Positions 418-31,967 of a DNA stretch of 47,965 nucleotides are shown one piece after another (position 1 is the stretch's first letter; every line of letters starts with the position of its first letter). Origin of the DNA: an uncultured bacterium (GTDB lineage: Bacteria; Abyssobacteria; SURF-5). Under the pieces are notes generated by a model that saw only the letters and a list, made by a program, of their open reading frames with translations, was not told where the DNA came from and made no database searches. The position numbers and the translations under genes were made by a program. Location: the NCBI GenBank assembly GCA_964510165.1, contig CAZEBC010000008.1:1-47965 (forward strand). The letters run 5' to 3'.

Positions 418-424
418 CCGTGAG

Positions 425-3698: not shown

Positions 3699-3716
3699 TT
3701 TTATAGGGGTGAAGCG

Positions 3717-7427: not shown

Positions 7428-7631
7428 TGCAAAATTTGCATAGTAACAAGTCGAACTTGACTGAATTATGCAAATATTTCATACCTCCCGAAGTGACGTT
7501 TTGATTTCGGCGCTGGTTATTGCTCCCCCTGTCTCCACTTTTTTAGAACTTAACCAATTTGTTGTCAAGAGTTTAGACCTGTCGCCCTTCTGCCCGACAT
7601 CCTGGCTTGGGATAATGGCATGGTAGTTGCT
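7428..7631 (+). promoter_or_regulatory. sigma54 (-24/-12) promoter upstream of dsrA with candidate IHF site and upstream palindromes
   Basis: TGGCATGGTAGTTGCT (7616-7631) fits TGGCAYG-N4-TTGCW with GG-N10-GC spacing. AACCAATTTGTTG (7552-7564) is one mismatch from IHF WATCAANNNNTTR. Palindromes TGCAAA-A-TTTGCA (7428-7440) and ATTTGCATA...TATGCAAAT (7434-7475). Confidence 0.7.
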
Positions 7632-7828
7632 TTTTCTGGAATATTGTGGAAGTAGGTTTCCCTCCATCCAACCCCTGATGCCAAAAGCTGTTAGAAATGT
7701 AAATGGACGAAGAGTGGAGGGAACAAAAACCGGAGGTCACCCCTTGAAGGCAGCACCCTCCGGCAGACCGAGTTAGAGGCGGCATCATTCAGAGGCTCGA
7801 AGGATAAGTAAAAGGACAGGAGAGAGTT

Positions 7829-9055
7829 ATGGCAGAGAAGGGCACACCGATGTTGGACGAGTTGGAGAAGGGTCCGTGGCCGAGCTTTGTGACGGAGATA
7901 AAGCGAGCGGGCAAGAAGAAGAAGGCGTGCATGGACCTTTTGCACCAGCTTGAGAAGTCGTACCGTGACCGTATTGGGTACTGGAAGCACGGGGGTATCG
8001 TTGGGGTGACGGGATACGGCGGGGGTGTGATTGGTCGGTACTCGATGTTTCCGGACGAGTATCCCGACATAGCGCATTTTCACACGATCCGAGTGAACAT
8101 GCCGTCGGGGTGGTTTTACACGTCGAAGGCGCTTCGGGCGGTGTGCGACATATGGGACGCGCACGGGAGCGGGTTGACGAACATGCACGGATCGACAGGG
8201 GACATCATATTATTGGGCACGACGACGGACCAGTTACAGCCGTGTTTTGACAATTTATCTGAGGCGGGTTTTGACCTTGGCGGCTCGGGTTCCGCGCTTC
8301 GTACGCCGAGCGCGTGCGTGGGACCCGCGCGGTGCGAGTGGTCGTGTTATGACACGCTTGATGCATGCCACACGATCACGATGGAGTTTCAGGACGAGCT
8401 ACATCGTCCGCCGTGGCCTTACAAGTTCAAGATGAAGTTCAGCGGGTGTCCGAACGACTGTGTGGCGTCGATTGCGCGGTCGGACCTGTCGGTGATCGGG
8501 ACGTGGCGGGACGCGATGCAGGTGGACAACGGCGCGGTGCGGGAGTATGCGGAGAAGGGGTTGGACATCCAGAAAGAGGTAGCGTCGTTGTGTCCGACGC
8601 GGGCGGTGGATTACGATTCGGGCACCAAGCAGCTTCGGATCATCAATGAGGACTGCGTGCGGTGCATGCACTGCATCAACGTGATGCCGAAGGCGTTGAG
8701 GCCTGGGAAGGAGCGGGGAGCGACGATTCTGGTAGGCGGGAAGGCGCCGATCCTGGAGGGTGCGATGCTGTCGTCGGTGATGATCCCGTTCATGAAGATG
8801 GAGCATCCGTACGATGAGCTAGTGGAGCTTGCGCGGAAGATACATGACTGGTGGGATGAGAACGCGAAGTTTCGTGAGCGAGTAGGTGAGTTGATCAAGC
8901 GAGTGGGGATTCGGACGTTCATCAAGGAGATGGGGCTTCCTGCGGTGCCACAGATGGTGAGTGCGCCGAGGGCGAACCCGTACTATTTCTGGTGGCCGGA
9001 AGAGGTGACGGACAGGGAAGGCAAGCCATTGATGCAGAAGAAGGAAGAGGTGTGA
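7829..9055 (+). CDS. dsrA: dissimilatory sulfite reductase alpha subunit (copy 1)
   Basis: [35 protein letters not shown], siroheme/Fe-S motifs CVGPARC and GCPNDC, ferredoxin CVRCMHCIN. Confidence 0.98.
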
Positions 9056-9057
9056 AG

Positions 9058-10116
9058 ATGGGGAGAACGGATATAGGACCGCCGCTGTATAAGGACATGC
9101 TTCCGCCGGTGATCACGAAGAACTATGGGAAGTGGAAGTATCACGAGATATTGAAGCCTGGGGTATTGGTGCACGTAGGAGAGAGCGGGGACAAGCTGTA
9201 CACGGTTCGGCTGGGTTCACCGAGGTTGGTGAGCACGGACTACATACGAGACCTGGCGGAGTTGGCGGACAAGTACTGCGACGGGTATTTGCGGTTCACG
9301 AGCCGTCACAACGTGGAGTTTTTGTTGACGGACGCGGGGAAGATCGAGGCGTTGATTGCGGACGCGAAGAAGCTTGGGTTGACGCCGGGGGGTACTGGCG
9401 CGTCGATCACGAGCATCGTGCACACGCAGGGGTGGATACACTGTCACACGCCGGCGACGGACGCCTCGGGGATCGTGAAGGCGGTGATGGACGATCTGTT
9501 TGAGTATTTTGGGAGCCACAAGCTGCCAGCGCAGGTGCGAATTGCGCTGGCGTGCTGTTTGAACATGTGCGGAGCGGTGCACTGTTCGGACATTGCGATA
9601 TTGGGGATACACCGGTTGCCGCCGAAGGTGGACCATGAGCGGTTGGGCAAGATATGCGAGGTACCCTCGACAGTGTCGGCGTGTCCGACGGGCGCGATTC
9701 GTCTGGACGCGAAGAAGAAGAGCGTGCAGGTGATCGAAGAGAAGTGCATGTACTGCGGGAACTGTTACACGATGTGTCCGGCGATGCCTTTGATGGACCC
9801 GGACGGAGACGGGGTATCGATCTGGGTAGGCGGGAAGGTGTCGAACGCGCGTCATGCGCCGATGTTCTCGCGGTTGGCGATTCCGTATTTGCCGAACAAT
9901 CCGCCGAGGTGGCCGGAGGTGGTGAAGGCGGTTCGGAACATTGTGGAGGTGTACGCGAGCAACGCGCGCAAGCACGAGCGAGTGGGAGAGTGGATCGAGC
10001 GAGTGGGCTGGGAGCGGTTCTTCAAGCTGACGGGAATCCCGTTCACGGACAAGCACATAGACGACTTCACGCTTGCGCAGGACACGTTCCGTACGACGCC
10101 GATGTTCAAGTGGTGA
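9058..10116 (+). CDS. dsrB: dissimilatory sulfite reductase beta subunit (copy 1)
   Basis: [60 protein letters not shown] 9058 two nt after the dsrA stop. Confidence 0.98.
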
Positions 10117-10118
10117 GT

Positions 10119-10168
10119 GCAGGGGCGGCTCTTGTGGCCGCCCGTAGGGGCGATTTTCGTGATCGCCC
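10119..10168 (+). repeat. tandem pair of REP-like 25-nt palindromes between dsrB and dsrD
   Basis: GCAG-GGGCGGC-N7-GCCGCCC then GTAG-GGGCGAT-N7-ATCGCCC; duplicated at 24407-24456. Confidence 0.7.
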
Positions 10169-10192
10169 GCAAGGAAAGAAGGCGAGAGGCCG

Positions 10193-10438
10193 ATGGACGA
10201 GGTGACGAGGAACGGAGTACTAGAGTTCATCAAGAAGAAGGCGGAGCGAGGGAAGGGCCTGAACAGTTATCGAGACATAACGAAGGGCTGTCCCGAGCTT
10301 GACCGCAAGGCGATAAAGAAGGCGGTGCAGGAGTTAATAGCGGAGGGCGTGCTTGACTACTGGTCGAGCGGCAGCACCACCTACATCCGCCTGGCCGGCT
10401 ATGAGCCCGGCTCTGGCGAAACCCCACCCGAAGAATAG
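10193..10438 (+). CDS. dsrD: DsrD (copy 1)
   Basis: 81-aa basic winged-helix-like protein with YWSSGSTT, directly after dsrB. Confidence 0.93.
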   Translation: MDEVTRNGVLEFIKKKAERGKGLNSYRDITKGCPELDRKAIKKAVQELIAEGVLDYWSSGSTTYIRLAGYEPGSGETPPEE

Positions 10439-10624
10439 GCCTGATGAGGAGAGATTTCGGCTGGATACGAGCCCGAAGGGCTTGAAGGAGGTGGCCGAAC
10501 GAAATCAGCGTGAGGGCAATCACGGTGGAGTGAGAAGAAGCGGGCCTGCCGGGAGCACGGACTGCCCGCGCAATCGAAGAGAGATTTAGTCGCATCTTGG
10601 AGAGCGAAAGGAGGTAGGTAAATA

Positions 10625-11863
10625 ATGTCGCAACTCGTGAAGCCTCACGGCTCGGCGGAGTTGAAGCCGCTTCTGCTGAAGGGCGACGCACTAAAGGAAG
10701 CTAAGAAGAAGGCCGAGAAGTTGCCGAAGGTGATGATGACCTCTCGTGAGACGTCCGACCTCATTATGATGGCGATCGGCGCGTTCACCCCCCTCGAGGG
10801 CTTCATGACCAAGGCCGATTGGAAAGGCGTGTGCGCCGAATACAAGATGGCGAACGGACTTTTCTGGCCCATCCCCATCACGTTATCAGCGCCCAAAGAC
10901 GTTGCCGATTCGATCAAGGCAGGCAGCGAGGTCGCCCTCGTCGATTCCGAGACCGGCGAGTTGATGGGCAGCATGGAGGTGACCGAGAAGTACACGATTG
11001 ACAAGGAATACGAGTGCAAACAAGTATTCCGCACCAATGATAAGGAACACCCGGGCGTAGCGAAAGTAATGGAACAAGCTGAGGTCAACCTGGCTGGCCC
11101 GGTGAAGGTATTCAGCGAGAGCTATTATCCGAAGGAATTTGCGGGCATCTACATGAGGCCTGCCGAGAGCCGGAAGATTTTTGAGGAGAAGGGCTGGAGA
11201 ACGGTAGCCGCGCTTCAGTTGCGCAACCCGATGCATCGCTCGCATGAATACCTCGCGAAGATAGCGGTGGAGGTGTGCGATGGCTTGTTTATTCACCAAT
11301 TGGTGGGCAAGCTCAAGGCCGGCGACATACCCGCCGATGTCCGCGTGAAGTGCATCGACGTGCTCGTTGAGCACTATTTTGTGAAGAACACTGTGGTTCA
11401 GGGCGGTTATCCTATGGAAATGCGCTATGCCGGACCGCGCGAGGCGCTCCTGCACGCGGTTTTCCGGCAGAACTTCGGCTGCAGTCACCTTATTGTTGGC
11501 CGTGACCATGCCGGCGTGGGTGACTATTACGGTCCGTTCGATGCGCAGAAGATTTTCAATGAGATTCCGCCAAACGCGCTCGAACTGAAACCGCTCAACA
11601 TCGACTGGACATTCTATTGCCACAAGTGCCGCGGCATGGCTTCGATGAGGACCTGCCCGCATGGCAAGGAAGACCGGTTGCTTCTGAGCGGCACCATGCT
11701 TCGCAAGATGCTCTCCGAAGGTGGAGAAGTCCCTGCCGATTTTAGCCGACCTGAGGTTCTCGCAATCCTCAAGGAGTACTACGCCGGTTTGACCGAGAAA
11801 GTGGAGATAAAACTTCACGGCGCGGCCACGGGCGAAGCAGCGGTGAAAGACAAGAAGAAATAA
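10625..11863 (+). CDS. sat: sulfate adenylyltransferase (ATP sulfurylase)
   Basis: [35 protein letters not shown], CxxC...CPH Zn site; AAGGAGGT RBS. Confidence 0.98.
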
Positions 11864-12006
11864 CGGGGTTTGTTGCGATTCGGTTGCTTTGCGTAAATAA
11901 AGCAGCGGACTTCACAAGAAAGGAGGTAGCGAAAAAAAAGCAAATGTATTTGTCGTGGAAGTTGAAGGGAAGGGAGCTGACAACGCACAACGTTAAGGAG
12001 TAGACA

Positions 12007-12450
12007 ATGCCAAGTTTTGTGAACCCAGAGAAGTGCGACGGTTGCAAGGCATTGGACAAGACTGCGTGCCAGCATATTTGCCCCAACGATTTGATGGTCT
12101 TGAACAAGGAGCAGATGAAAGCATACAACCAGGAACCGGAAATGTGCTGGGAATGCTACAATTGCGTGAAAATCTGCCCCACTCAGGCCGTCGAAGTGCG
12201 AGGCTACGCAGACTTTGTTCCGATGGGTGCCAGCGTCACACCGATGCGCGGCACCGAAGACATCATGTGGACCGTTAAGTTCCGCAGCGGACAGATCAAG
12301 CGGTTCAAGTTCCCGATCCGTACCACGCCGGAAGGCTCTGCCGTTCCGGATGGCGGTTTTAAGACCGGGACCGACGATTTGAGCAGTCCATTGCTTTTCA
12401 CGGAGCCGGAGTCGACCGGAATGGCGAATCTGGCGCCAGTCAAGAAGTAA
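12007..12450 (+). CDS. aprB: adenylylsulfate reductase beta subunit
   Basis: MPSFVNPEKCDGCK..CQHICPNDLM, CWECYNCVKICP, KRFKFPIRTTPEGS. Confidence 0.98.
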   Translation: MPSFVNPEKCDGCKALDKTACQHICPNDLMVLNKEQMKAYNQEPEMCWECYNCVKICPTQAVEVRGYADFVPMGASVTPMRGTEDIMWTVKFRSGQIKRFKFPIRTTPEGSAVPDGGFKTGTDDLSSPLLFTEPESTGMANLAPVKK

Positions 12451-12468
12451 GGAAGGGAGGTGGAATAC

Positions 12469-14340
12469 GTGGCTGATTTTCAAAATGTAGAAGTGACTAC
12501 CGACCTTCTGATACTAGGCGGCGGTATGGCGGCCTGCGGCGCGGCGGTTGAAGCTGCGTACTGGGCAAAGAAGAACGGCCTCAAGGTGACACTGGTCGAC
12601 AAGGCGGCGATGGACCGCAGCGGCGCGGTGGCCATGGGCCTGTCCGCCATCAACCAATACGTCGGTCTGAAGGACGGCGAGAATACGCTTAAAGACTACA
12701 TCGAGTACGTCCGCAATGACCTCATGGGGATCACGCGTGAAGACCTGGTTGCCAGTATCGCCCGGCACGTTGATTCCACAGTGCATCTGTTTGAAAAATG
12801 GGGCCTTCCCATTTGGCTGGATGCAAACGGCAAGTACGTGCATGAAGGCCGCTGGCAGCTCATGATCAACGGCGAGTCCTACAAGGTCGTGGTTGCCGAA
12901 GCTGCAAAGAATGCGCTCGGCATCGCGAACATTTATGAGCGCGTGTTTATCGTCGAGCCTCTGCTCGATGGAGACCGCATCGCGGGCGCCGTCGGCTTCA
13001 GCGTGCGCGAGAACAAATTCTACGTGTTCAAGGCAAAGGCGGTCCTGGCGGCAATGGGCGGCGCGGTGCACGTGTTTAAGCCCCGGTCGGCAGGAGAAGG
13101 CCTCGGCCGCGCCTGGTATCCGCCGTGGAACTCCGGCTCGAGCACCTACTACACGGCCCGCGCCGGCGCGGAACTGACCTGCCAGGAAGTCCGGTTCATC
13201 CCGGTCCGCTTCAAGGATGCATACGGCCCGGTGGGCGCGTGGTTCCTGCTGTTCAAGTCAAGAGCCACCAACGCCCTCGGCGAGAACTATATGGAGACTC
13301 GCAAGGACGAGCTCAAGAAGTGGGCGCCGTATGGCAGCGTGAAGCCCGTACCCGCGAACCTGCGAAACTGGCTCGGCATGCTGGACGTGATGGAAGGAAA
13401 AGGCCCCATCTCGATGAGGACGGAAGAGGCCATCGCCAACCTGGCCAAGGCAGTGCCGGACGAGAAAGAGCGCAAGAAGAAGCTCAAGGAACTCGAGAGC
13501 GAAGCATGGGAAGACTTCCTCGACATGACCATCTCGCAGGCTATCCTGTGGGCTAGCACGAATGTGCAGCCTGAGCAGAAGCCCTCGGAAATCGCCGCCG
13601 CAGAGCCTTACTTCATCGGCTCGCACTCCGGCGCTTCCGGCGCGTGGGTCAGCGGCATGAAGGACCTGGCTCCGCCCGAGTACTTCTGGGGCTATGGTCA
13701 CATGTCCACCGTCAAGGGTCTGTTCTGTGCGGGTGACGCATCGGGTGCCTCCAGCCACAAGTTCTCCTCCGGTTCCTGCACCGAAGGTAGAATCGCGGCC
13801 AAAGAGGCTATCCGGTTCGTCGTAGAGAACAACACTCAGCCCAAGGTTGACGCAGCCCAAGTCGCGTCACTGAAGGAGAGGATACTGAAGCCGCTGGACC
13901 TGTTCCAGCAATTCAAGGGCGCTTCCAGCGATCCGGACATCAACCCCAACTTCATGAAGCCGAAGATGTTCATGTTCAGGCTTCAGAAGATCATGGACGA
14001 ATACGCAGGCGGCGTGACGGCTCAGTTCAGCACAAGCAAGGCCCTGCTCGAGAGAGCGCTCGAGTTGCTCACCTTCCTGAAGGAAGACTCCGAACATCTC
14101 GCTGCCGAGGACTTGCACGAACTGATGCGGTGCTGGGAGAATGTGCAGAGGTTGTGGCAGGCTGAAGTCCACGTCCGGAGCATACTCTTCCGCGAAGAAA
14201 CACGCTGGCCGGGATACTACTTCAGGGCGGACTTCCCGAAGATGGACAACGAGAACTGGAAAGTTTTCGTTAACGCTACGTGGAGCCCCAAGACCGGTGA
14301 ATGGACAATGGCGAAGAGACCCGTCATTTCCATCATCTGA
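12469..14340 (+). CDS. aprA: adenylylsulfate reductase alpha subunit
   Basis: GGGMAACGAA FAD motif, RSGAVAMGLSAIN, WQLMINGESYK, RFKDAYGPVGAWFLLFK, HKFSSGS, ETRWPGYY; GTG 12469 fits the GGAGG RBS (ORF track starts at 12460). Confidence 0.98.
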   Translation: MADFQNVEVTTDLLILGGGMAACGAAVEAAYWAKKNGLKVTLVDKAAMDRSGAVAMGLSAINQYVGLKDGENTLKDYIEYVRNDLMGITREDLVASIARHVDSTVHLFEKWGLPIWLDANGKYVHEGRWQLMINGESYKVVVAEAAKNALGIANIYERVFIVEPLLDGDRIAGAVGFSVRENKFYVFKAKAVLAAMGGAVHVFKPRSAGEGLGRAWYPPWNSGSSTYYTARAGAELTCQEVRFIPVRFKDAYGPVGAWFLLFKSRATNALGENYMETRKDELKKWAPYGSVKPVPANLRNWLGMLDVMEGKGPISMRTEEAIANLAKAVPDEKERKKKLKELESEAWEDFLDMTISQAILWASTNVQPEQKPSEIAAAEPYFIGSHSGASGAWVSGMKDLAPPEYFWGYGHMSTVKGLFCAGDASGASSHKFSSGSCTEGRIAAKEAIRFVVENNTQPKVDAAQVASLKERILKPLDLFQQFKGASSDPDINPNFMKPKMFMFRLQKIMDEYAGGVTAQFSTSKALLERALELLTFLKEDSEHLAAEDLHELMRCWENVQRLWQAEVHVRSILFREETRWPGYYFRADFPKMDNENWKVFVNATWSPKTGEWTMAKRPVISII

Positions 14341-14353
14341 CGATGAAGCCCTT

Positions 14354-14388
14354 TCCTCCGGGCGCCCTCCCCCTGGGCGCCCGGAGGA
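14354..14388 (+). other. perfect 14-bp GC-rich stem-loop after aprA, without a U-tract
   Basis: TCCTCCGGGCGCCC-TCCCCCT-GGGCGCCCGGAGGA. Confidence 0.75.
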
Positions 14389-14452
14389 GCCCCCTCGGGG
14401 GTTGCTGTTGTATGGGGGACTGGTTAAGAAATACTGAAGAGAGTGATTCAAC

Positions 14453-14740
14453 GTGCAGTGCAATGACACCCCAACCTGCCCGCATTGCGGTCAAGAAATG
14501 AATAAGTGGGCGCTTCCAGACGGAACCACATGGCAAGCGGAGTTTCACTATGTATGTTTCAATGATGAGTGCCCCTATTTCGTTCGCGGCTGGCAGTGGA
14601 TGCATGAGAAATACAAACGTCGCGCCTCGTATCGGCATTGCGTCAACCCCGGGACCGGCGCTTCGCGTCCGCTTCCGGTATGGTCAATCACGGCGTTAAA
14701 AGACCGTATCATCAAAGACACCGTGTCTAATTCCTCATGA
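14453..14740 (+). CDS. small zinc-ribbon-like hypothetical protein
   Basis: CPHC...CFNDEC (CxxC + Cx4C), Trp-rich, in operon orientation. Confidence 0.75.
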   Translation: MQCNDTPTCPHCGQEMNKWALPDGTTWQAEFHYVCFNDECPYFVRGWQWMHEKYKRRASYRHCVNPGTGASRPLPVWSITALKDRIIKDTVSNSS

Positions 14741-14761
14741 AACAGATTGCGAAGATTCTCA

Positions 14762-15589
14762 ATGAAGGAACTGCAAGACCTGAAAGAAACGATTCTGCGG
14801 GATGCACCGAGGTTTACCGAAACCGATAAGTTCAAGTTCTCTTGTCATAAAGGATTGAACTGCTTCACCCAGTGTTGTGCCGACGTCACGATTTTTCTTA
14901 CGCCATACGATATTCTCCGGATGAAGAGGCGCCTCGGAATCTCGTCCGACGAGTTCCTGGCTTCCTATACATTTGTCCCATTCACGCAGCAACAGAAACT
15001 GCCCGTCGTCGTACTGAAAATGGGTGATGACGAGCGAAGAACCTGCCCTTTCCTTGCCGCCGAAGGCTGTTCCATCTATGAGGACCGCCCCTGGGCCTGC
15101 CGCATGTATCCGCTTGGGCTTGCTTCACCGAGCGAGGATGCTGGACCCGCCGAGCAGCGATTCTACTTCCTCATGCAGGAAGGCAATTGCTGCGGGTTCA
15201 ATGAGGACAAGGAATGGATGGTAGGGGAATGGATCGAGAATCAGGGAATAACCCTGTACAACGAGATGGGCGAGTTGTTCAAGGATATCTCGTTGCACGA
15301 ATTCTTCCGCAAGGACGGAAGACTCGATCCTGAAAAGATGGAAATGCTCTACCTGGGCTGCTATCACCTCGACAAATTTCGCAGGTTCGTGTTCGAAAGC
15401 AGATTTCTGCAGCACTTCGATATAGATTCCGAACTCATCGAAAAAATACGAATTGACGACGTGGAACTGATGAAATTCGCGTTTCAGTGGCTGAAATTCG
15501 CCTTATTCAACGAGCCGACCATGAGGATAAGCGAGTCTGTACTGGAGGCGAAGAAACAACGATTATTGGGCAAGAAGCAACCAACGTAA
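14762..15589 (+). CDS. YkgJ-family cysteine-cluster (putative Fe-S/Zn) protein
   Basis: CHKGLNCFTQCC, CPFL...GCSIYEDRPWACRMYP; start ATG 14762 or TTG 14747. Confidence 0.88.
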   Translation: MKELQDLKETILRDAPRFTETDKFKFSCHKGLNCFTQCCADVTIFLTPYDILRMKRRLGISSDEFLASYTFVPFTQQQKLPVVVLKMGDDERRTCPFLAAEGCSIYEDRPWACRMYPLGLASPSEDAGPAEQRFYFLMQEGNCCGFNEDKEWMVGEWIENQGITLYNEMGELFKDISLHEFFRKDGRLDPEKMEMLYLGCYHLDKFRRFVFESRFLQHFDIDSELIEKIRIDDVELMKFAFQWLKFALFNEPTMRISESVLEAKKQRLLGKKQPT

Positions 15590-15599
15590 TGGAGATGCT

Positions 15600-16856
15600 A
15601 TGAGTGCCAACGGCAAGATTCTCGTCATAGGCGGAGGCATAAGCGGCATATCCGCCGCCGCTGAAGCCGCCGAGCTGGGCTGCGAGGTAGTGCTGGTCGA
15701 GAAGGAAGCGTACCTCGGCGGAAGAGTGATTCGCATGAATCAGTATTTCCCGAAGCTCTGTCCGCCCACGTGCGGCATGGAGATAAACATCCGACGCCTG
15801 CGCCAGAATCCCAGGGTCAAAGTCTACACTCTGGCCGAGGTGGAAAAGGTCTCGGGCGAGCCCGGCAGCTACACGGTTACTATCAAGGTGAATCCGCGAT
15901 ACGTCACCGGTAAGCAACCCCTTTCCGAGGCTCACCTTCAGGCTGTGACGACCGAGGTGCCGAACTCGTTCAATTATGATATGGACAAGAGCAAGGCGCT
16001 CTATATGCCGCATGACTCGGCGTTTCCCCCGACATATGTGCTCCGTAAGGACGCTTTAACGAGCGACGAGCGTGAGAAGCTCAAGACGGCCTCGCCCGCG
16101 GAGGCGATCGACCTCGACATGAAACCGCAGAGTATCGAGGAGAGAGTCGGCGCGATTATTGTCGCGACAGGCTGGAAACCTTACGACGCGACCAAGCTGG
16201 ATAACCTCGGTTTCGGCAAATGCGCTAATGTCATAACTAATATGATGATGGAGCGACTGGCAAGTCTGAGCGGACCGACCGGGGGAAAGATAGTGCGGCC
16301 TTCCGACGGCAAAGAGCCGCTCAGCGTCGCCTTTGTTCAGTGCGCGGGCTCGCGGGATGAAAACCATCTGCCATATTGTTCGGCGCTCTGCTGCATGGGA
16401 TCATTGAAGCAAGCGCGATACGTAAGAGAGAAAGTGGCCAACTCAAAGGTCACCATATTCTACATTGACATCCGAACCATTGGCCGCTTCGAAAAGTTCT
16501 ATTATGACCTCTTGGAGGACCCGAATATCTCCTTCGTCAAAGGAAAGGTGGCGAAGATAGCCGAAGACCCTGCGACGAAGAACCCGATCGTTGAGGTTGA
16601 GGAAGTAATGCCGGGCAACAGGGTGCGCGAGCAATTTGACATGGTCGTGCTCGCTACCGGAGTCGTGCCCTCAACGGCTGACTCGCCCATCCCGGGGGCC
16701 AAGATTGCGTATGACAACGATGGATTTATTGTGGATAGCCCAAACGGCGACGCGATATTTGCCGCTGGCTGCGTAAAACGGCCGCTCGACGTATCGAGGT
16801 CGGTGAAAGACGCCACCGCTGCAGTCATGAAGGCCATCCAAAGAGTCAGGAGGTAA
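15600..16856 (+). CDS. qmoA: QmoA (HdrA-like flavoprotein)
   Basis: VIGGGISG, YFPKLCPPTCG, FVQCAGSRDENHLPYCSALCC; follows aprBA. Confidence 0.95.
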   Translation: MSANGKILVIGGGISGISAAAEAAELGCEVVLVEKEAYLGGRVIRMNQYFPKLCPPTCGMEINIRRLRQNPRVKVYTLAEVEKVSGEPGSYTVTIKVNPRYVTGKQPLSEAHLQAVTTEVPNSFNYDMDKSKALYMPHDSAFPPTYVLRKDALTSDEREKLKTASPAEAIDLDMKPQSIEERVGAIIVATGWKPYDATKLDNLGFGKCANVITNMMMERLASLSGPTGGKIVRPSDGKEPLSVAFVQCAGSRDENHLPYCSALCCMGSLKQARYVREKVANSKVTIFYIDIRTIGRFEKFYYDLLEDPNISFVKGKVAKIAEDPATKNPIVEVEEVMPGNRVREQFDMVVLATGVVPSTADSPIPGAKIAYDNDGFIVDSPNGDAIFAAGCVKRPLDVSRSVKDATAAVMKAIQRVRR

Positions 16857-16863
16857 TGGTACC

Positions 16864-19107
16864 GTGGCGAACAAGATCGGAGTATACATTTGTACCGGCT
16901 ACGGCATCGGTGATGCTATCAATATCGAGGAACTGTGCAAGATAGCCACAAGCGAATACAAGACGCCGGTGTGCAAGACTGTGCCCTCATGCGAGGGAGA
17001 TGACCTCGAGTTCATCAAGAAGGACATCGCTGAGCAGGGTCTGGACAAAGTCGTCATCGCCGGGCCATCCCCCCGTTTCTTTGCGCCCAAGACGTTTCCC
17101 GCCGAGCTGATGGTGGAATATGTGAACCTCAGAGAACAGGTTGCATGGTGCCAGCCACCCAACGAAGAAGACACCCAGATGCTGGCCAATGACTATCTGC
17201 GAATGGGCATTGTGAAAATCCAGAAGACGCAGCCGGTCGAGCCGTTCCCCGAGAGCAAAGACATAAACAAGACCATCCTGGTCGTTGGCGGCGGAATCGC
17301 CGGACTGACGGCGGCTCTCGAAACGGCAAAGGCGGGCTACGATACTGTTCTGGTCGAGAAAGCTCCTCAACTCGGAGGCTGGATGGCAAAGCTGAAGAAG
17401 TCCATCCCGAGGCGCCCCCCATACGAACAGCTCGAAGACCCGGGCATCGAGGAGAAAATTAAAGAGGTCCGGCAGAACAGCAAGATAAAGGTGTACACCT
17501 CGGCCGAGATCGAAAAGATCAAGGGCGCACCCGGAATGTTCGACGTGAAGCTCAAGGGCGACGACGCAACATTCCGCGTAGGCGCCATCGTCCAGGCAAC
17601 CGGCTGGAAGCCATATCGGCCGCAGAACCTCGATCACCTCGGTTTTGGCAAGCTTGCGAACGTGATAACCAATGTCGAGATGGAAGAGATGGCCAAGAAG
17701 GGGCGCATCAGGCGTGCTGACGGCAAGGACGCCAAGAACGTGGTGTTCGTGCAGTGCGCCGGGTCCCGTGACAAGATGGAGCTTTCCTACTGCTCGTCCA
17801 TCTGTTGCTTGAACTCCTTGAAACAGGCGGCCTACGTGCGTGAGCAGGACAGTGGCGCGAAAGCTTACATCATATACGACAACCTTCGAGCTCCCGGACA
17901 TTATGAGTATTTCTACAAGAAGATGCAGCAGGACCCGGGCGTTTTTCTGACCAAGGGTCAGGTCGTCGGCGTGCAGGAAAACGGCGGTTCGCTTAGAGTC
18001 AATGTCGAGAACACGCTGGTTGGCGAAAACATAAGCATCGACGCGGACCTGGTCGTGTTGGCCACCGGTATGGTTCCGCAGTCAGCCGACGGCGAAAAGA
18101 TACGCGCTGTGATCGACGCCAAGAAGTTCATCGCCTCGGGCGAAGGCGGGGCAGGCCTTGAGCTTGCGAAGCAGAAGGTCGCTGATTTCGGGCATCACGA
18201 GGGGACCGAGATTCTGAACCTCGCGTATCGACAGGGGCCTGACCTGCCCACTCTCCAATACGGGTTCCCCGATTCCCATTTTATCTGCTTCCCGTACGAG
18301 ACACGGCGAACCGGCATCTATACCGCTGGCGCGGTCAGGTCTCCGATGGACGGACTCGGCAGCATCGAGGACGCGACCGGCGCGGCCTTCAAGGCAATTC
18401 AATGCGTCGAGATGATTTCGCGCGGAGAGGCCGTGCTGCCGCGCGCGGGCGACCTCTCATTTCCCGACTTCTTCCTCCAGCGTTGTACACAATGCAAGCG
18501 CTGCACGGAAGAGTGCCCGTTCGGGACGCTGAATGAAGACGAAAAGGGCACGCCGCAGCCCAATCCCACTCGATGTCGCCGATGCGGTATCTGCCTGGGG
18601 GCATGCCCGGAGCGCATTATCAACTTCAAGAATTACTCGGTGGACATGATCGCTTCGATGATCAAGGCGGTTGAAGTCCCCGACGAATACGAGGAAAAGC
18701 CAAGGGTGCTCATTCTGGCCTGCGAAAATGACGCATATCCCGCATTCGATACGGTCGGCGTCAAACGCTTGCGGTACAGCCCGTTCGTCCGGATCATTCC
18801 GGTGAGGTGTCTGGGTTCGGTCAACGTGATCTGGATCAATGAGGCGCTCGCCAAGGGATTCGACGGCATTCTGTTGCTCGGATGCAAGTACGGCGACGAC
18901 TATCAGTGCCATTTCGTCAAAGGCAGCGAGTTGATGAACACTCGCGGTGAAAACGTAAGAGAAAAACTGAAGCAGATGGCCCTCGAGAATGAGCGTGTTC
19001 AGTTACATCAGATCCAGATATCGGACTATGACAAGTTGCCGGCCATTGTGAACGAGTTCATGGAAACAATCGAACAGGTTGGAATGAACCCGTTCAAGGG
19101 AATGTAA
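16864..19107 (+). CDS. qmoB: QmoB (HdrA-like + ferredoxin + MvhD-like domain)
   Basis: GGGIAG, QCAGSRD..YCSSICC, DSHFICFPYETRRTG, CTQCKRCTEECP, CRRCGICLGACP, C-terminal ACENDAYPA/VRCLGS/QCHF. Confidence 0.96.
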   Translation: MANKIGVYICTGYGIGDAINIEELCKIATSEYKTPVCKTVPSCEGDDLEFIKKDIAEQGLDKVVIAGPSPRFFAPKTFPAELMVEYVNLREQVAWCQPPNEEDTQMLANDYLRMGIVKIQKTQPVEPFPESKDINKTILVVGGGIAGLTAALETAKAGYDTVLVEKAPQLGGWMAKLKKSIPRRPPYEQLEDPGIEEKIKEVRQNSKIKVYTSAEIEKIKGAPGMFDVKLKGDDATFRVGAIVQATGWKPYRPQNLDHLGFGKLANVITNVEMEEMAKKGRIRRADGKDAKNVVFVQCAGSRDKMELSYCSSICCLNSLKQAAYVREQDSGAKAYIIYDNLRAPGHYEYFYKKMQQDPGVFLTKGQVVGVQENGGSLRVNVENTLVGENISIDADLVVLATGMVPQSADGEKIRAVIDAKKFIASGEGGAGLELAKQKVADFGHHEGTEILNLAYRQGPDLPTLQYGFPDSHFICFPYETRRTGIYTAGAVRSPMDGLGSIEDATGAAFKAIQCVEMISRGEAVLPRAGDLSFPDFFLQRCTQCKRCTEECPFGTLNEDEKGTPQPNPTRCRRCGICLGACPERIINFKNYSVDMIASMIKAVEVPDEYEEKPRVLILACENDAYPAFDTVGVKRLRYSPFVRIIPVRCLGSVNVIWINEALAKGFDGILLLGCKYGDDYQCHFVKGSELMNTRGENVREKLKQMALENERVQLHQIQISDYDKLPAIVNEFMETIEQVGMNPFKGM

Positions 19108-19120
19108 GGGAGGTCTTTTC

Positions 19121-20347
19121 ATGACCACCGAAGTGAAAGTCGAAACCGCCGAGATGGAAAAGGTGGAACCTCGCACCGCACAAAAGACTCCCCGCCAAAG
19201 CGGGGTACGGGTCGAGCCGGACCTTGATTTCATTAAGGAAGTCATGGCATCGGGCGGTGAAACGCTCAAGAAGTGCTTCCAGTGCGCGACGTGCTCGACC
19301 GTGTGTGAGATAGCACCCGACCACCATCCCTTCCCGAGGAAGGAAATGATATGGGCATCATGGGGTCTGAAGGATAAACTTGTGGCCGACCCCGATGTGT
19401 GGCTTTGCCATCAGTGCGGCGACTGCTCCGTCCATTGTCCCCGCGGCGCCAGACCGGGGGACACCCTCGGGGCCATCCGAAACTATATGTTCAAGACGTT
19501 CACCTTCCCGAAGTTCTTGGGAACGTGGCTGAGCGAGCCAAAATATTTGCCGCTTGTGTTCGGGGTGCCCGTTGTGTGGTTGCTCGTCTTGCTCGCGATC
19601 GCCGGGACTATCGGGACCGTGCCCGAGGGGGACATTGAATTCACCAAGTTCCTGCCACATACGCATCTGTACAGTATCTTTATTACCGCTACTCATTTGG
19701 CTGCCTTGTTCTTCGCCATCGGGCTTGTCAAATTCTGGAAAGGGCTTGGAACATCGCAAGTGTACCAAGGGACCGGCGTTGCCGGGCCTACCCAGGGCAA
19801 CTTGATGGGTAGTCTGACGGCGACCGTCAAGGAGATTCTCACGCAGGCAAAATTCAAGAGGTGTACGGAAAACGCTTCGCGCCACGTGGGGCATTTGGCG
19901 ATCATGTATGGATTTGCCGCCATTGCGATCGGCACGGGCATTGCCTTCTTCATGATGTATGGTCTGAAAATACACCCTCCCTTTGGTCAATTCACTCCGC
20001 CCAAGCTGCTCGGCCATGCCGGCGTCATAGCCTTGATAATAGGGCTCGTGCTTGTCATGAAACACAGGCTGAGTCGCGAAGAGAGGATCACGAAGGCCAC
20101 CTATCAAGACTGGTATCTGCTGGTAGTGCTGTTCGCAGTTGCGGCGACGGGAGAACTGGTCGAGATCATACGATTTGCCGACATTAAGCCTCTCGCATAT
20201 TGGGGGTACATCGTTCATCTCGTGTTCGTTTTCGGCTTGATCGCTTATTTCCCGTACCATAAGTTCGCACACATGTTCTATCGGTTTGTGGCGATACTGC
20301 ACTCAAAATATTACGGCCGGAATGCGACCGAGAAAATTGCGGCTTGA
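19121..20347 (+). CDS. qmoC: QmoC (ferredoxin domain + membrane cytochrome b)
   Basis: KKCFQCATCSTVC, FPRKEMIWASWGLKD, WLCHQCGDCSVHCPRGA, transmembrane segments, PYHKFAH. Confidence 0.95.
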   Translation: MTTEVKVETAEMEKVEPRTAQKTPRQSGVRVEPDLDFIKEVMASGGETLKKCFQCATCSTVCEIAPDHHPFPRKEMIWASWGLKDKLVADPDVWLCHQCGDCSVHCPRGARPGDTLGAIRNYMFKTFTFPKFLGTWLSEPKYLPLVFGVPVVWLLVLLAIAGTIGTVPEGDIEFTKFLPHTHLYSIFITATHLAALFFAIGLVKFWKGLGTSQVYQGTGVAGPTQGNLMGSLTATVKEILTQAKFKRCTENASRHVGHLAIMYGFAAIAIGTGIAFFMMYGLKIHPPFGQFTPPKLLGHAGVIALIIGLVLVMKHRLSREERITKATYQDWYLLVVLFAVAATGELVEIIRFADIKPLAYWGYIVHLVFVFGLIAYFPYHKFAHMFYRFVAILHSKYYGRNATEKIAA

Positions 20348-20365
20348 ACTGGAGATGGTTCGGAA

Positions 20366-22072
20366 GTGTCTGAAACAGCCCAAAGAATAGTGGTGATAGG
20401 CGGTGTGGCCTGCGGGCCAAAGGCGGCCGCGCGCGCGCGGCGTCGTGACCCGAGCGCCAGAATCACCATCATCGAGCGCGGCCCCTTTCTGTCATACGCC
20501 GGCTGCGGCTTGCCGTATTATATAGGTGGGTCAGTGCCTCAATGCGACGACTTGCGCAAGACTCAATACGGCGTGGTCCGGGACGAAGATTTCTTCTGGA
20601 ATGTCAAGGAGATCGAAGCGCGCACTCGCACTGCGGTAGAGTCGATCAACCGAGACCGAAAGACTGTCACCATCAGAAGTCTCGAAACAAATGCGACCGA
20701 CGAAATCCCTTACGATAAACTGGTGCTGGCCACCGGAGCTTCACCCGCCAAACCGCCCATCGAGGGCTTGTCCCTGGAGCGCGTGTTCTTCGTTCATGTG
20801 CCGCATGACGCTCAACTCATGCGAGAACTGATTGAAGGCGGCGAGGTGGATAAAGCCGTCTTCATAGGCGCCGGACGCGTCTCGCTCGAGGTGGCCGAAT
20901 CGCTCTTCGCGCATGCGGTGGATGCGGCGATCGTCGAAATGGAAGGGTCCATCCTCCCTGCGATGCTCGATCCCGAAATAGCTGCGGTGGTTGCGGGCGC
21001 GCTTCGCGAAGATAACATCGAAGTATTCCTTTCGGAAAAGGTTCTGCGAATCGAAGGCGATGAGGAAGGACGAGCGTGCAAGGTCATTACCGAAGCGCGC
21101 GAAATACCGACCGACATCGTCGTGGTGGCGACGGGTGTGAAGCCTAATGTGGAACTCGCAGTTGCGGCAGGATTGGCTATTGGGGAAGCTGGCGCCATTG
21201 CGGTCAATGATCGGCTGCAAACGAGCGACCCGGACATCTATGCCGGAGGCGACTGCGTTGAGTGCACGAGCCTCGTGACAGGAAAGAAAATATACGCGCC
21301 GCTCGGCTCCACTGCAAATCGCCATGGCCGCGTAATCGGCGACAACGTTACCGGAGGCGATTCCACATTTCCAGGCGTCGTAGGCACATGCGCTATGAAG
21401 AGTATGGGAATGAACATCGCCGGCACCGGCATTACGGAGCGGCAGGCCAGGGCGCTTGGCTATTCTGTCCTCACAAGCATCGTGTCGTCGATGGATCGGG
21501 CTCATTATTATCCGGGCGCCAAGTTTATTCTGGTCAAGATGGTGGCCGACGCCAAGGATGGCCGACTCCTTGGAGCACAGGTGGTCGGGCCCGGCGATGT
21601 TACGAAGCGAATTGACGTGCTGGCCACGGCGCTTACAAGCCGGGCCGATATAGATCAGATTGCGAATCTGGACCTCAGTTACGCGCCGCCGTATTCCACC
21701 GCGCTCGATGCCGTGACGCACGCGGCAAACGTCCTTAGAAACAAGCGTGACGGTATGGCGGAAGCGCTTGGGCCGGCCGAAGTGCGCGCGAGGATGGACC
21801 GCAATGATGAGTTTGTTCTTTTGGATGTTCGCGAGATGACTGAAGTCGAGAAAGCGAAGTTCGAAGACAGACGGGTTTGCGCGATCCCGCTCAGCCGACT
21901 GCGCTCCTCGGCAAGCGAAGTCCCGAACGCAAAGGAGCTTATTTGCCTGTGTCAAATGGGCATGAGAAGTTATGAGGCCTGTCTAACGCTCAAGGGAATG
22001 GGCTTCGAAAATGTGAAGTTTCTTGAGGGCGGCTTGAGATTCTGGTCCGACGCAGGTTACTCCGACACCTGA
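20366..22072 (+). CDS. CoA-disulfide/persulfide reductase-like flavoprotein with C-terminal rhodanese domain (Npsr-like)
   Basis: IGGVACG FAD motif, [10 protein letters not shown] redox Cys, ATG, GD, YAPPYS, rhodanese [17 protein letters not shown]. Confidence 0.9.
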
Positions 22073-22116
22073 GCGGACCGGTAGTCTTGTGGGGTTGGCA
22101 ACTTAAGGAGAGAGTT

Positions 22117-23343
22117 ATGGCAGAGAAGGGCACACCGATGTTGGACGAGTTGGAGAAGGGTCCGTGGCCGAGCTTTGTGACGGAGATAAAGCGAGCGGGC
22201 AAGAAGAAGAAGGCGTGCATGGACCTTTTGCACCAGCTTGAGAAGTCGTACCGTGACCGTATTGGGTACTGGAAGCACGGGGGTATCGTTGGGGTGACGG
22301 GATACGGCGGGGGTGTGATTGGTCGGTACTCGATGTTTCCGGACGAGTATCCCGACATAGCGCATTTTCACACGATCCGAGTGAACATGCCGTCGGGGTG
22401 GTTTTACACGTCGAAGGCGCTTCGGGCGGTGTGCGACATATGGGACGCGCACGGGAGCGGGTTGACGAACATGCACGGATCGACAGGGGACATCATATTA
22501 TTGGGCACGACGACGGACCAGTTACAGCCGTGTTTTGACAATTTATCTGAGGCGGGTTTTGACCTTGGCGGCTCGGGTTCCGCGCTTCGTACGCCGAGCG
22601 CGTGCGTGGGACCCGCGCGGTGCGAGTGGTCGTGTTATGACACGCTTGATGCATGCCACACGATCACGATGGAGTTTCAGGACGAGCTACATCGTCCGCC
22701 GTGGCCTTACAAGTTCAAGATGAAGTTCAGCGGGTGTCCGAACGACTGTGTGGCGTCGATTGCGCGGTCGGACCTGTCGGTGATCGGGACGTGGCGGGAC
22801 GCGATGCAGGTGGACAACGGCGCGGTGCGGGAGTATGCGGAGAAGGGGTTGGACATCCAGAAAGAGGTAGCGTCGTTGTGTCCGACGCGGGCGGTGGATT
22901 ACGATTCGGGCACCAAGCAGCTTCGGATCATCAATGAGGACTGCGTGCGGTGCATGCACTGCATCAACGTGATGCCGAAGGCGTTGAGGCCTGGGAAGGA
23001 GCGGGGAGCGACGATTCTGGTAGGCGGGAAGGCGCCGATCCTGGAGGGTGCGATGCTGTCGTCGGTGATGATCCCGTTCATGAAGATGGAGCATCCGTAC
23101 GATGAGCTAGTGGAGCTTGCGCGGAAGATACATGACTGGTGGGATGAGAACGCGAAGTTTCGTGAGCGAGTAGGTGAGTTGATCAAGCGAGTGGGGATTC
23201 GGACGTTCATCAAGGAGATGGGGCTTCCTGCGGTGCCACAGATGGTGAGTGCGCCGAGGGCGAACCCGTACTATTTCTGGTGGCCGGAAGAGGTGACGGA
23301 CAGGGAAGGCAAGCCATTGATGCAGAAGAAGGAAGAGGTGTGA
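22117..23343 (+). CDS. dsrA: dissimilatory sulfite reductase alpha subunit (copy 2)
   Basis: Same translation as 7829-9055; ATG 22117 behind the AGGAG RBS. Confidence 0.97.
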
Positions 23344-23345
23344 AG

Positions 23346-24404
23346 ATGGGGAGAACGGATATAGGACCGCCGCTGTATAAGGACATGCTTCCGCCGGTGA
23401 TCACGAAGAACTATGGGAAGTGGAAGTATCACGAGATATTGAAGCCTGGGGTATTGGTGCACGTAGGAGAGAGCGGGGACAAGCTGTACACGGTTCGGCT
23501 GGGTTCACCGAGGTTGGTGAGCACGGACTACATACGAGACCTGGCGGAGTTGGCGGACAAGTACTGCGACGGGTATTTGCGGTTCACGAGCCGTCACAAC
23601 GTGGAGTTTTTGTTGACGGACGCGGGGAAGATCGAGGCGTTGATTGCGGACGCGAAGAAGCTTGGGTTGACGCCGGGGGGTACTGGCGCGTCGATCACGA
23701 GCATCGTGCACACGCAGGGGTGGATACACTGTCACACGCCGGCGACGGACGCCTCGGGGATCGTGAAGGCGGTGATGGACGATCTGTTTGAGTATTTTGG
23801 GAGCCACAAGCTGCCAGCGCAGGTGCGAATTGCGCTGGCGTGCTGTTTGAACATGTGCGGAGCGGTGCACTGTTCGGACATTGCGATATTGGGGATACAC
23901 CGGTTGCCGCCGAAGGTGGACCATGAGCGGTTGGGCAAGATATGCGAGGTACCCTCGACAGTGTCGGCGTGTCCGACGGGCGCGATTCGTCTGGACGCGA
24001 AGAAGAAGAGCGTGCAGGTGATCGAAGAGAAGTGCATGTACTGCGGGAACTGTTACACGATGTGTCCGGCGATGCCTTTGATGGACCCGGACGGAGACGG
24101 GGTATCGATCTGGGTAGGCGGGAAGGTGTCGAACGCGCGTCATGCGCCGATGTTCTCGCGGTTGGCGATTCCGTATTTGCCGAACAATCCGCCGAGGTGG
24201 CCGGAGGTGGTGAAGGCGGTTCGGAACATTGTGGAGGTGTACGCGAGCAACGCGCGCAAGCACGAGCGAGTGGGAGAGTGGATCGAGCGAGTGGGCTGGG
24301 AGCGGTTCTTCAAGCTGACGGGAATCCCGTTCACGGACAAGCACATAGACGACTTCACGCTTGCGCAGGACACGTTCCGTACGACGCCGATGTTCAAGTG
24401 GTGA
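23346..24404 (+). CDS. dsrB: dissimilatory sulfite reductase beta subunit (copy 2)
   Basis: Same translation as 9058-10116. Confidence 0.97.
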
Positions 24405-24480
24405 GTGCAGGGGCGGCTCTTGTGGCCGCCCGTAGGGGCGATTTTCGTGATCGCCCGCAAGGAAAGAAGGCGAGAGGCCG

Positions 24481-24726
24481 ATGGACGAGGTGACGAGGAA
24501 CGGAGTACTAGAGTTCATCAAGAAGAAGGCGGAGCGAGGGAAGGGCCTGAACAGTTATCGAGACATAACGAAGGGCTGTCCCGAGCTTGACCGCAAGGCG
24601 ATAAAGAAGGCGGTGCAGGAGTTAATAGCGGAGGGCGTGCTTGACTACTGGTCGAGCGGCAGCACCACCTACATCCGCCTGGCCGGCTATGAGCCCGGCT
24701 CTGGCGAAACCCCACCCGAAGAATAG
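24481..24726 (+). CDS. dsrD: DsrD (copy 2)
   Basis: Same translation as 10193-10438. Confidence 0.93.
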   Translation: MDEVTRNGVLEFIKKKAERGKGLNSYRDITKGCPELDRKAIKKAVQELIAEGVLDYWSSGSTTYIRLAGYEPGSGETPPEE

Positions 24727-24748
24727 GATGGGAAGCAAGCAGGAAGCC

Positions 24749-26164: not shown

Positions 26165-26181
26165 TGGCGGTCTATTAGCGG

Positions 26182-27084: not shown

Positions 27085-27131
27085 TCTCAATCGGGGCTAA
27101 TAGGGTAAATCGTTAAGAAAGGAAAGACAAC

Positions 27132-27449: not shown

Positions 27450-27637
27450 TTCGACAGAGCAAGTGAGAGCAGGCGCTGCGGGATTGTCAGGCGCTGGATG
27501 ACCCGGACAAGACCAGAGGCGCCGTGCAAAGAAGTCGGTGTGTCTTCCGGAACAGGGAGACACAACGACCCTGGTTTCGAAAACCGTTGTGCCTGCGCCG
27601 CCGGAGATGTGGCTGATTCATCCGTGCGAGGTGTTGT

Positions 27638-29187: not shown

Positions 29188-29189
29188 CA

Positions 29190-31958: not shown

Positions 31959-31967
31959 GGGAAAACA

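Follow-up and report, generated by a model that had tools for sequence, protein, structure and literature searches.

Near-identical dsrABD copies flank sat-aprBA-qmoABC in an uncultured bacterium and appear to evolve in concert

Background

Methanotrophs carry two near-identical copies of pmoCAB, and the tufA and tufB genes of enterobacteria undergo concerted evolution by gene conversion. The genes of sulfate respiration are reportedly clustered as well, in what Mussmann et al. 2005 are said to have conceived as a 'metabolic island'. Multiple nearly identical amoCAB operons occur in betaproteobacterial ammonia oxidisers (PMC5029485), and the mtrA duplicates of methanogens are described as evolving in concert by gene conversion (PMC4632066). 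The dsrAB genes are the standard marker of sulfate and sulfite reducers and are treated as single-copy (PMC4351914), in agreement with what the preliminary description of the DNA considered here had taken as known. Moorella thermoacetica has more than one dsrAB (PMC4351914, PMC10504309), and pairs of reductive and oxidative dsrAB are on record for CG2-30-53-67, Actinomycetota, Myxococcota and Desulfocapsaceae metagenome-assembled genomes, or MAGs (PMC10591310, PMC11406059). This paper concerns a stretch of 47,965 nucleotides (nt) from an uncultured bacterium of the Abyssobacteria (SURF-5 lineage; GenBank assembly GCA_964510165.1, contig CAZEBC010000008.1), hereafter the window, in which the three-gene module dsrABD, which encodes both catalytic subunits of dissimilatory sulfite reductase along with DsrD, occurs twice, once on either side of the sulfate-activation genes sat, aprBA and qmoABC.

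We consider it likely that an ancestral two-copy arrangement of dsrABD around sat-aprBA-qmoABC has been homogenised by recombination and is served by two types of promoter. No description of identical dsrAB or dsrABD twins, or of a repeat-caused dropout of dsrAB from genome bins, was found in the full-text literature (supplementary tables and subscription journals lay outside the scope of that search), and an earlier report of identical dsrABD twins may exist. PMC13271369 deals with a lineage that has asrABC.

Results

An exact direct repeat of dsrABD

Base-by-base comparison of the two dsrABD copies (copy 1 and copy 2, Table 1) shows an exact direct repeat: all 2,622 nt agree between copies offset by 14,288 nt, as had been claimed from inspection of the letters. 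Identity begins 11 nt upstream of the dsrA ATG (AGGAGAGAGTTATG), where the ribosome-binding site AGGAGAGAG lies, and extends 1 nt past the dsrD stop codon TAG; in the 50-200 nt on each side it falls abruptly to 20-28%, i.e. to random. No other direct repeat in the window reaches 40 nt, and the repeat search found no inverted repeats there. The boundaries thus lie where the preliminary description had put them, and they are as bare as it had said: the repeat copies lack terminal inverted repeats (25 of 60 positions match at best), and neither is flanked by a target-site duplication of at least 2 nt. Nor did Pfam find transposase or integrase domains among the 38 window open reading frames (ORFs) scanned. 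Duplication by a transposon or insertion sequence was rejected for lack of all three features.

The two copies sit in dissimilar surroundings, and Pfam and NCBIfam gene calls agree with the arrangement first described. Copy 1 has wide spacers (480 nt upstream, 186 nt downstream) and leads into sat and apr. Copy 2 is tightly packed and leads into dsrN: its repeat starts 33 nt after the stop of a flavoprotein gene (22072), with 44 nt from that stop to the dsrA ATG, and on the other side there is 1 nt to a possible dsrN ATG (24728). The repeat has a G+C content of 59%, the other blocks a uniform 55.6-56.1%. In what follows A denotes the left flank, R the repeat, B the block between the copies and C the dsrN-side flank, so that a junction is written, for example, A-R.

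Junctions and depth in public sequencing runs

The window is the entire contig C8 of the source genome draft (G000), which is fragmented (325 contigs, N50 18 kb, 148 runs of N), and an exact 2.6-kb repeat in a short-read contig is resolved by graph logic and not by spanning reads. Both circumstances would suit a false assembler loop around a single dsrABD per genome, an explanation that we regard as very improbable in light of what other data contain. The stretch is present in five public DNA runs from three studies; Logan contigs of four of them (X1-X4) were placed on 7000-22140, the share for the fifth (X5) being 0.34. These contigs derive from a k=31 graph, in which bubbles can be popped. 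One X1 contig (7000-7847) stops exactly 30 nt inside the repeat (A-R), two others (7818-8682 and 8684-10439) have their outer ends exactly at the repeat borders, a further one runs from 10410, 30 nt inside the repeat end, into sat (R-B), and another ends at 22135, 30 nt into copy 2 (B-R). Run X3, from a different study, has the same stops at 7847 (the A-R contigs of the two runs start at 7000/7023) and at 22135, together with a contig that follows the repeat up to 10439 and then 216 letters of other sequence, with a 30-nt consensus equal to the window sequence after copy 2 (R-C), and an X4 contig starts at 10421 (R-B). Such stops are what a k=31 graph yields at a true two-copy repeat. In runs from two studies, contigs with all four junction kinds occur, so that at least one study is independent even if one run is the source sample.

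Repeat contigs are also deeper than their flanks: 15.5 and 17.6 against 6.8-11 in X1, 9.98 and 8.5 against 4.8-6.7 in X3, 6.97 and 5.78 against 2.9-4.4 in X4, and 6.29 and 7.8 against 3.6-5.2 in X2, a ratio of about 1.3-2, contig depth not being the same as copy number. A false loop accounts neither for this excess nor for the junctions in runs of two studies, nor for the assembly of the same structure in another genus (G006, below), nor for matching branch points in five MAGs built with overlaps of 55, 99 and 141 nt; and four junctions with no others leave A-R-B-R-C as the sole single-molecule solution.

RecA-mediated excision and amplification proceed well between direct repeats of 2.6 kb, and on such general grounds repeat plus block (14.3 kb) might form an element that is amplified or excised, with tandem arrays or circles in part of the population. 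We give this reading hardly any weight: the X1 block contigs (6.8-11) are no deeper than the A-side contig (10.1), which implies about one block per genome, and no extra junctions were reported.

An unlikely but more serious possibility is that both copies are real and not exactly identical, their differences having been erased by consensus building (bubble popping). The data are consensus sequences throughout, which favours it, and so do two tandem paralogue pairs elsewhere in G000, whose identical interiors fit either conversion or collapse. The pair on contig C205 (721-2297 and 3261-4837) has only 2 mismatches, at positions 7-8 of 1,577, and the pair on C6 (8061-9341 and 11883-13163) is identical over positions 32-1194 of 1,281; either gene conversion is common in G000 or the assembler collapses sparse differences. 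On the other side, the assembler kept repeats of 97% and 99.87% identity apart, and the repeat's k-mer depth is near 2x in X1, X3 and X4, indicating that most 31-mers are shared and, as a rough estimate, that the copies diverge by less than ~1%. Divergence of a few percent would still fall well short of the 16% between genera reported below, and concerted evolution would stand.

The strain in X3 and X4 has flanks that differ from the window by 0.2-1.2% and shows 12 substitutions inside the repeat (8 and 4 in two X3 contigs), all at full depth in single contigs of raised depth, so that both copies of that strain appear to share the variant bases. A 1-nt insertion at 10436 is seen only in the minority-depth R-B contig (depth 3.7 of 17.2 in X3, 4.2 of 9.98 in X4). 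An assembler collapse of two similar copies into one consensus, which the preliminary description had listed among its explanations, may hide a few single-nucleotide differences, the data being consensus contigs, and fails to produce the overall pattern of four junction kinds and 1.3-2x contig depth.

The same duplication in a second genus

A DsrA search of 41 genomes, G000 included, returned two matches on one contig of G006, a member of the same family and of another genus. From tRNA-Leu to RecD2 the G006 locus has the gene order of the window, and it includes a direct repeat whose 2,622-nt copies are offset by 14,407 nt. Both begin 11 nt ahead of the ATG, at the base homologous to the first one of the window repeat (AGGAGAAGGTTATG), and extend as far as the dsrD stop. 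They differ by 2 mismatches in 2,622 nt (99.92%), adjacent to each other at positions 2617-2618, by which the copy 1 stop becomes CAG.

Across the two genomes, G000 and G006, identity is ~84% in the repeat and ~73% in the intervening block. Fourfold degenerate sites differ at 56 of 165 positions in dsrA and at 45 of 145 in dsrB, for synonymous divergences (dS) of 0.60 and 0.52, against zero differences between the copies of either gene within G000 or within G006. The dsrB-dsrD spacer, 76 nt in G000 and 55 nt in G006, is identical within each genome, whereas the two versions look unrelated side by side (unaligned). A maximum-likelihood tree of 13 dsrA sequences pairs the copies by genome, on branches of 0.13 and 0.093.

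The A-R, R-B, B-R and R-C contexts and near-identical boundaries are common to both genomes, and the duplication predates their divergence; within genomes there are 0 and 2 differences in 2,622 nt against ~16% between them, silent and non-coding sites included. Paralogues that are older than the split of the genera and yet identical in each genome are the signature of concerted evolution. What divergence there is sits at the edges of the repeat (2617-2618 in G006, about 20 nt before the dsrD stop in G004, inside the stop in G009). Homogenisation by gene conversion, one of the explanations originally offered, is strongly supported by the conserved duplication taken together with ~84% identity between and ~100% within genomes.

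Contig breaks at the repeat in the rest of the family

Of the 11 species genomes that represent the phylum in the collection, 10 belong to this family. Searches of these 10 found DsrA in 2, AprA (85-90% identical) in 9 and DsrK in 9, and neither AprA nor DsrK was found in G010, the sole genome of the phylum's other family. Two contigs, G005:C132 (11,945 nt) and G007:C125 (12,034 nt), contain the block only: the genes sat through flavoprotein, preceded by the last ~25 codons of dsrD and followed by ~26 codons from the start of dsrA. The layout of G004:C112 is the same minus the flavoprotein. In these block-only contigs and that of G009, as in G006, the gene order of the block is that of the window.

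Block contigs share an identical prefix, the dsrD tail, with the dsrN-side contig of the same genome (99 nt in G005, 99 nt in G007, 55 nt in G009, 141 nt in G004), the contigs parting at +14 nt, at +1 nt, inside the stop and at about -20 nt, respectively, relative to the dsrD stop. An identical suffix, the dsrA head, is likewise shared between A-side and block contigs (141 nt in G004, 99 nt in G007, 99 nt in G005, 55 nt in G001) and begins 8, 13, 19 and 16 nt, respectively, before the dsrA ATG. The left boundary accordingly falls 8-19 nt ahead of the ATG in these genomes, and the right one between -20 and +14 nt relative to the stop codon. All four junction kinds are seen in G004, G005 and G007; G009 shows R-B, R-C and B-R, G001 shows A-R and B-R (with PAS kinase and receiver genes on its A side as in the window), and G008 has a B-R end only.

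Two contexts on one repeat end are in this way found in 7 of the 10 family genomes, belonging to six genera, and the dsrABD body is missing from the MAG in five of those seven, as expected if binning omits a 2.6-kb contig whose coverage is doubled. Assembly from short reads stops at the repeat, and dsrABD is consequently absent from most MAGs of the family. Copies diverged by 16% would not break assemblies, so the breaks would indicate near-identical copies in these genomes too. DNA searches with the repeat ends were less informative. The dsrD tail had no match in G002, G003, G008 and G009, a search too insensitive to be read as absence given that G009 does carry the 55-nt tail, and a weak match in G010 (31 nt, E 0.001) was disregarded; the dsrA head had no match in G002, G003 and G010, of which G002 (830 contigs) and G003 (310) are very fragmented.

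Within-genome identities of 100% and 99.92% look like fresh duplication, and a very recent event had indeed been proposed. If each lineage had duplicated the module on its own, very recently and with no long-term homogenisation, the same segment would have had to reach the same two places, with boundaries agreeing to ~10-30 nt, in seven or more species from six genera and without mobile-element machinery, which we find scarcely credible; the same duplication and boundaries in G006 and the contig-break signatures in five more genomes lead us to reject a very recent origin.

Two putative promoter types upstream of the copies

A sigma-54-type motif precedes copy 1 (Table 1); nothing else in the window matches TGGCAYN5TTGCW, which we take to be the sigma-54 -24/-12 consensus (0.09 matches expected; at least one in 8 of 100 shuffles). 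The form TGGCAT-N5-TTGCT is invariant in all six genome-derived copy-1 contexts (G000, G006, G005, G007, G004, G001), 208-232 nt before the ATG, and occurs in none of 10 copy-2 contexts. Copy 1 thus has GG and GC elements at canonical spacing that are kept in relatives, and G000 encodes RpoN (two matches).

Eight of the 10 copy-2 contexts (G006, G005, G007, G009, G008, G001 and the metagenome loci L026 and L027) instead have a sigma-70-type box, TTGACT (TTGATT in L026) followed after a 17-18-nt spacer by a TGnTAnAAT-like element, 95-131 nt before the ATG. In relatives the box is followed by a conserved GACGCTnTGCGTTA, and the measured copy-2 spacers there are 143-336 nt long. The preliminary description had placed both copies in one operon; with a strong sigma-70-type promoter directly upstream of copy 2 in relatives, that is unsupported as stated. 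The motifs suggest two transcription units, each headed by a dsrABD copy, and one enzyme placed under two controls by promoters of different types.

When the superclusters were scanned with strict patterns, only these motifs recurred across genomes. There were two extra matches: one to the sigma-54 pattern inside the window dsrN, taken as chance, and one of sigma-70 type in G006, ~50 nt upstream of tRNA-Leu and outside the sulfate-reduction genes. A simple promoter scan of 7000-26900 gave no signal (6 promoter-like sites, 8.3 expected), and Rfam had no match on 7200-7900.

Metagenome loci, outgroups and the origin of the pair

A metagenome search for DsrA loci returned 13. The locus L025 (2,605 nt, DsrA 88% identical) consists of dsrABD alone, beginning 2 nt before and ending 3 nt after the homologous repeat borders, much like a collapsed repeat node. 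In L026 and L027 the flavoprotein gene adjoins dsrA, as at copy 2, and L029 has Rrf2, macro-domain, hypothetical and HmcF-like genes before dsrA, an A-type context. The outgroup loci L015, L016 and L030-L034 (DsrA 62-70% identical) carry one dsrAB, and dsrN-dsrC comes directly after it, leaving no space for dsrD; in L015, L016, L030, L031 and L034, dsrN lies within 128-180 nt of dsrB and dsrD is not there. The order dsrABD-dsrN seems specific to the twin-copy clade, and since the outgroups carry their single dsrAB ahead of dsrN-dsrC, the dsrN-linked position of copy 2 is probably the older one.

As to origin alone, it is possible, and we say so tentatively, that two operons (dsrABD-sat-aprBA and qmo-...-dsrABD-dsrN...), each with a dsrABD of its own, came together, for example through lateral transfer or Campbell-type integration of a circle, and that only their homologous genes were homogenised afterwards. 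Such a joining would explain without coincidence why identity is bounded by the ribosome-binding site and the stop codon in every genome, and why the promoters and leaders of the two copies are unrelated; the locus also adjoins a tRNA gene, and G010 lacks AprA and DsrK. Set against it are the uniform G+C content across blocks, the single dsrAB without dsrD between dsrB and dsrN in the outgroup loci, and the fact that no diverged second dsrABD remnant, integrase or donor was found. Copying in place followed by decay of the non-coding flanks is at least as likely.

Genes of the locus

Table 1. Positions of the dsrABD copies and neighbouring features in the window
Feature	Position	Strand	Basis or remark
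tRNA-Leu(CAG)	334..419	+	ARAGORN; left landmark of the locus, common to G006
Genes from tRNA-Leu to copy 1, in order: methyltransferase, Rrf2 regulator, macro-domain protein, HmcF/DsrK-like iron-sulfur protein fused to receiver domain, PAS histidine kinase, receiver protein		+	Pfam, NCBIfam
Sigma-54-type -24/-12 motif TGGCATGGTAGTTGCT	7616..7631	+	198 nt upstream of dsrA copy 1 start
Repeat copy 1	7818..10439	+	ribosome-binding site, dsrA 7829-9055, dsrB 9058-10116, 76-nt spacer with hairpin, dsrD 10193-10438
Block between copies, 11,666 nt	10440..22105	+	Pfam, NCBIfam
sat	10625-11863	+	block between copies
aprB	12007-12450	+	block between copies
aprA	12460-14340	+	block between copies
Ogr/Delta-type zinc-finger protein (95 aa)	14453-14740	+	between aprA and qmoA
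CxxCxxCC protein (280 aa)	14747-15589	+	between aprA and qmoA
qmoA	15600-16856	+	block between copies
qmoB	16864-19107	+	block between copies
qmoC	19121-20347	+	block between copies
CoA-disulfide-reductase-like flavoprotein with C-terminal rhodanese domain	20366-22072	+	between qmoC and dsrA copy 2
Repeat copy 2	22106..24727	+	ribosome-binding site, dsrA 22117-23343, dsrB 23346-24404, dsrD 24481-24726
Downstream dsr genes	24728..33125	+	dsrN, C-N hydrolase, dsrC 27132-27449, dsrT-like 27638-28195, dsrM/K/J/O/P 28195-33125

The duplicated genes match the NCBIfam equivalogs for DsrA (TIGR02064, 567.5 bits, cut-off 392.85) and DsrB (TIGR02066, 531.6 bits, cut-off 341.5), and the best relative of solved structure is 3mm5_A, a dissimilatory-type sulfite reductase alpha subunit (E 1.1e-167). 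DsrM, DsrK, DsrJ, DsrO, DsrP and the products of aprA, aprB and qmoC all score above their NCBIfam equivalog cut-offs; in Pfam, dsrD is assigned to PF08679 and DsrC to PF04358. With dsrD adjacent, and with DsrC, DsrMKJOP, sat, aprBA and qmoABC present, the repeat is assigned as DsrAB with a DsrD module, and the dsrD and apr/sat/qmo context suggests that DsrAB works in the reductive direction.

Within the block, the Ogr/Delta-type zinc-finger protein and the CxxCxxCC protein are kept in 8 of the 8 family contigs that cover their position, at 64-73% identity. The flavoprotein is present in most family genomes, is absent in G004 and G009, and occurs near dsr or qmo genes in the outgroup loci L015 and L017; its rhodanese domain may link its role to persulfide or polysulfide. 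Terminator-like hairpins with T-rich tails lie in the dsrB-dsrD spacer (10128-10151 and 24416-24439) and after aprA (14388-14403), where they could attenuate dsrD transcription and end a sat-aprBA unit, respectively. A simple terminator scan of 7000-26900 gave 29 terminator-like sites, these hairpins among them, where 18 were expected.

The stretch from tRNA-Leu to copy 1 is variable, with 7.4 kb of genes in the window (334-7817) and ~620 nt in G006, where 87 nt at the tRNA-Leu site, ~620 nt upstream of copy 1, are 100% identical to the window. Beyond its tRNA-Leu, G006 carries arginine-biosynthesis genes, while G001 (L163) has the PAS kinase and receiver. This variable tRNA-side stretch may be an island boundary at the tRNA gene. 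Two unusual fusions stand beside the dsr supercluster: a HmcF/TmcB/DsrK-like iron-sulfur CCG protein with a C-terminal receiver domain (3717-5432), whose L029 homologue matches residues 1-436 only and apparently has no receiver part, and a receiver domain joined to a glycine-cleavage H-like domain (35763-36548).

Discussion

In the arrangement that we propose, the dsrABD repeat brackets the sat-aprBA-qmoABC block inside one sulfate-reduction supercluster of ~25 kb, and the duplication would be old, dating from before the divergence of six or more genera in this family, which belongs to a small candidate phylum. Recurrent recombination, whether intrachromosomal gene conversion or unequal exchange, would keep the copies identical within each genome while the module diverges between genomes, and a RecA-type process is a plausible homogeniser. 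Recombinational loss of one copy would delete sat, apr and qmo with it and would presumably be selected against. The benefit would probably lie in having the same enzyme under two regulatory inputs, in a higher dose of it as the preliminary description had proposed, or in both, the differing promoter types pointing to dual regulation.

A number of observations weigh against this proposal or limit how far it can be taken. Apart from the depth ratio already qualified above, only the X3 R-C contig bridges its junction by the rule of the run-matching tool (at least 31 letters on each side), the others ending 30 letters inside the repeat. All sequence evidence consists of consensus assemblies or k=31 contigs, in which a few differences between copies could be hidden, and exact identity of the copies is not certifiable from consensus assemblies. 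In five genomes the duplication is read from contig ends, the repeat body being unseen there. The dS values of dsrA and dsrB lie well below those of their single-copy neighbours sat, aprA, qmoB, dsrK and dsrP (1.2-4.2), for which biased codon usage under high expression, conversion itself or a later exchange could be responsible.

Points of the same kind concern the promoters. Copy 2 of the window has no sigma-70 motif, the promoter there being as inconspicuous as the preliminary description had noted even though eight of 10 copy-2 contexts have one, and G004 has a variant only; the window's copy-2 spacer (22073-22116) is just 44 nt long, which accounts for the missing box. The source genome seems to have deleted the box, and its copy 2 probably depends on read-through. 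The locus L029 combines an A-type upstream context with a sigma-70-type motif, and Pfam found no Sigma54_activat domain in the ORFs of the window or in 6 ORFs upstream of copy 1 in G006.

With these reservations we still favour an old, homogenised pair of dsrABD copies, and we incline, with distinctly less assurance, towards a broader claim: that the whole family consists of sulfate reducers with twin dsrABD, one copy under a sigma-54 promoter with sat-aprBA and the other under a sigma-70 promoter with dsrN-dsrC-dsrTMKJOP, maintained by gene conversion since before the genera split and overlooked as dsrAB-negative. If that is true, the family is systematically scored as lacking dsrAB in MAG surveys, and the same blind spot may hide other lineages. 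Selecting genomes by dsrAB would miss most of the family, as the counts of DsrA (2 of 10) and of AprA and DsrK (9 of 10 each) indicate, and identical twins would double the apparent abundance of the lineage in dsrAB counts from reads or quantitative PCR. The locus is also an unusually clear case in nature of a catabolic module of several bacterial genes evolving in concert over the long term, with the erosion of its edges visible to the nucleotide, and it points to a design open to testing, with two promoter classes driving one enzyme.

The clustering of dsr, apr, sat and qmo genes in one block, here beside a tRNA gene and in a phylum whose other family lacks AprA and DsrK, is akin to the metabolic island reportedly envisaged by Mussmann and colleagues; twin dsrABD copies are not known to be part of that description. 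Multi-copy dsrAB in Moorella, and the pairs of reductive and oxidative dsrAB, involve phylogenetically distinct copies believed to differ in function or to run in opposite directions, whereas the copies described here encode the same proteins.

The closer parallels are found outside sulfur metabolism. Like mtrA and tufA/tufB, the dsrABD paralogues predate a species split and are nonetheless more alike within than between genomes; the difference is one of extent, a three-gene module and its non-coding spacer being homogenised here over 2.6 kb, to 100% and 99.92%, with divergence at the extreme edges only. With amoCAB and pmoCAB they share the situation of a key catabolic enzyme of a slow-growing specialist held in at least two almost identical copies, its gene serving as an environmental marker. 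What sets the present locus apart from those operons is that the enzyme is DsrAB together with DsrD, that the copies bracket pathway genes in one supercluster and stand behind two promoter types, and that the genomes are all derived from metagenomes.

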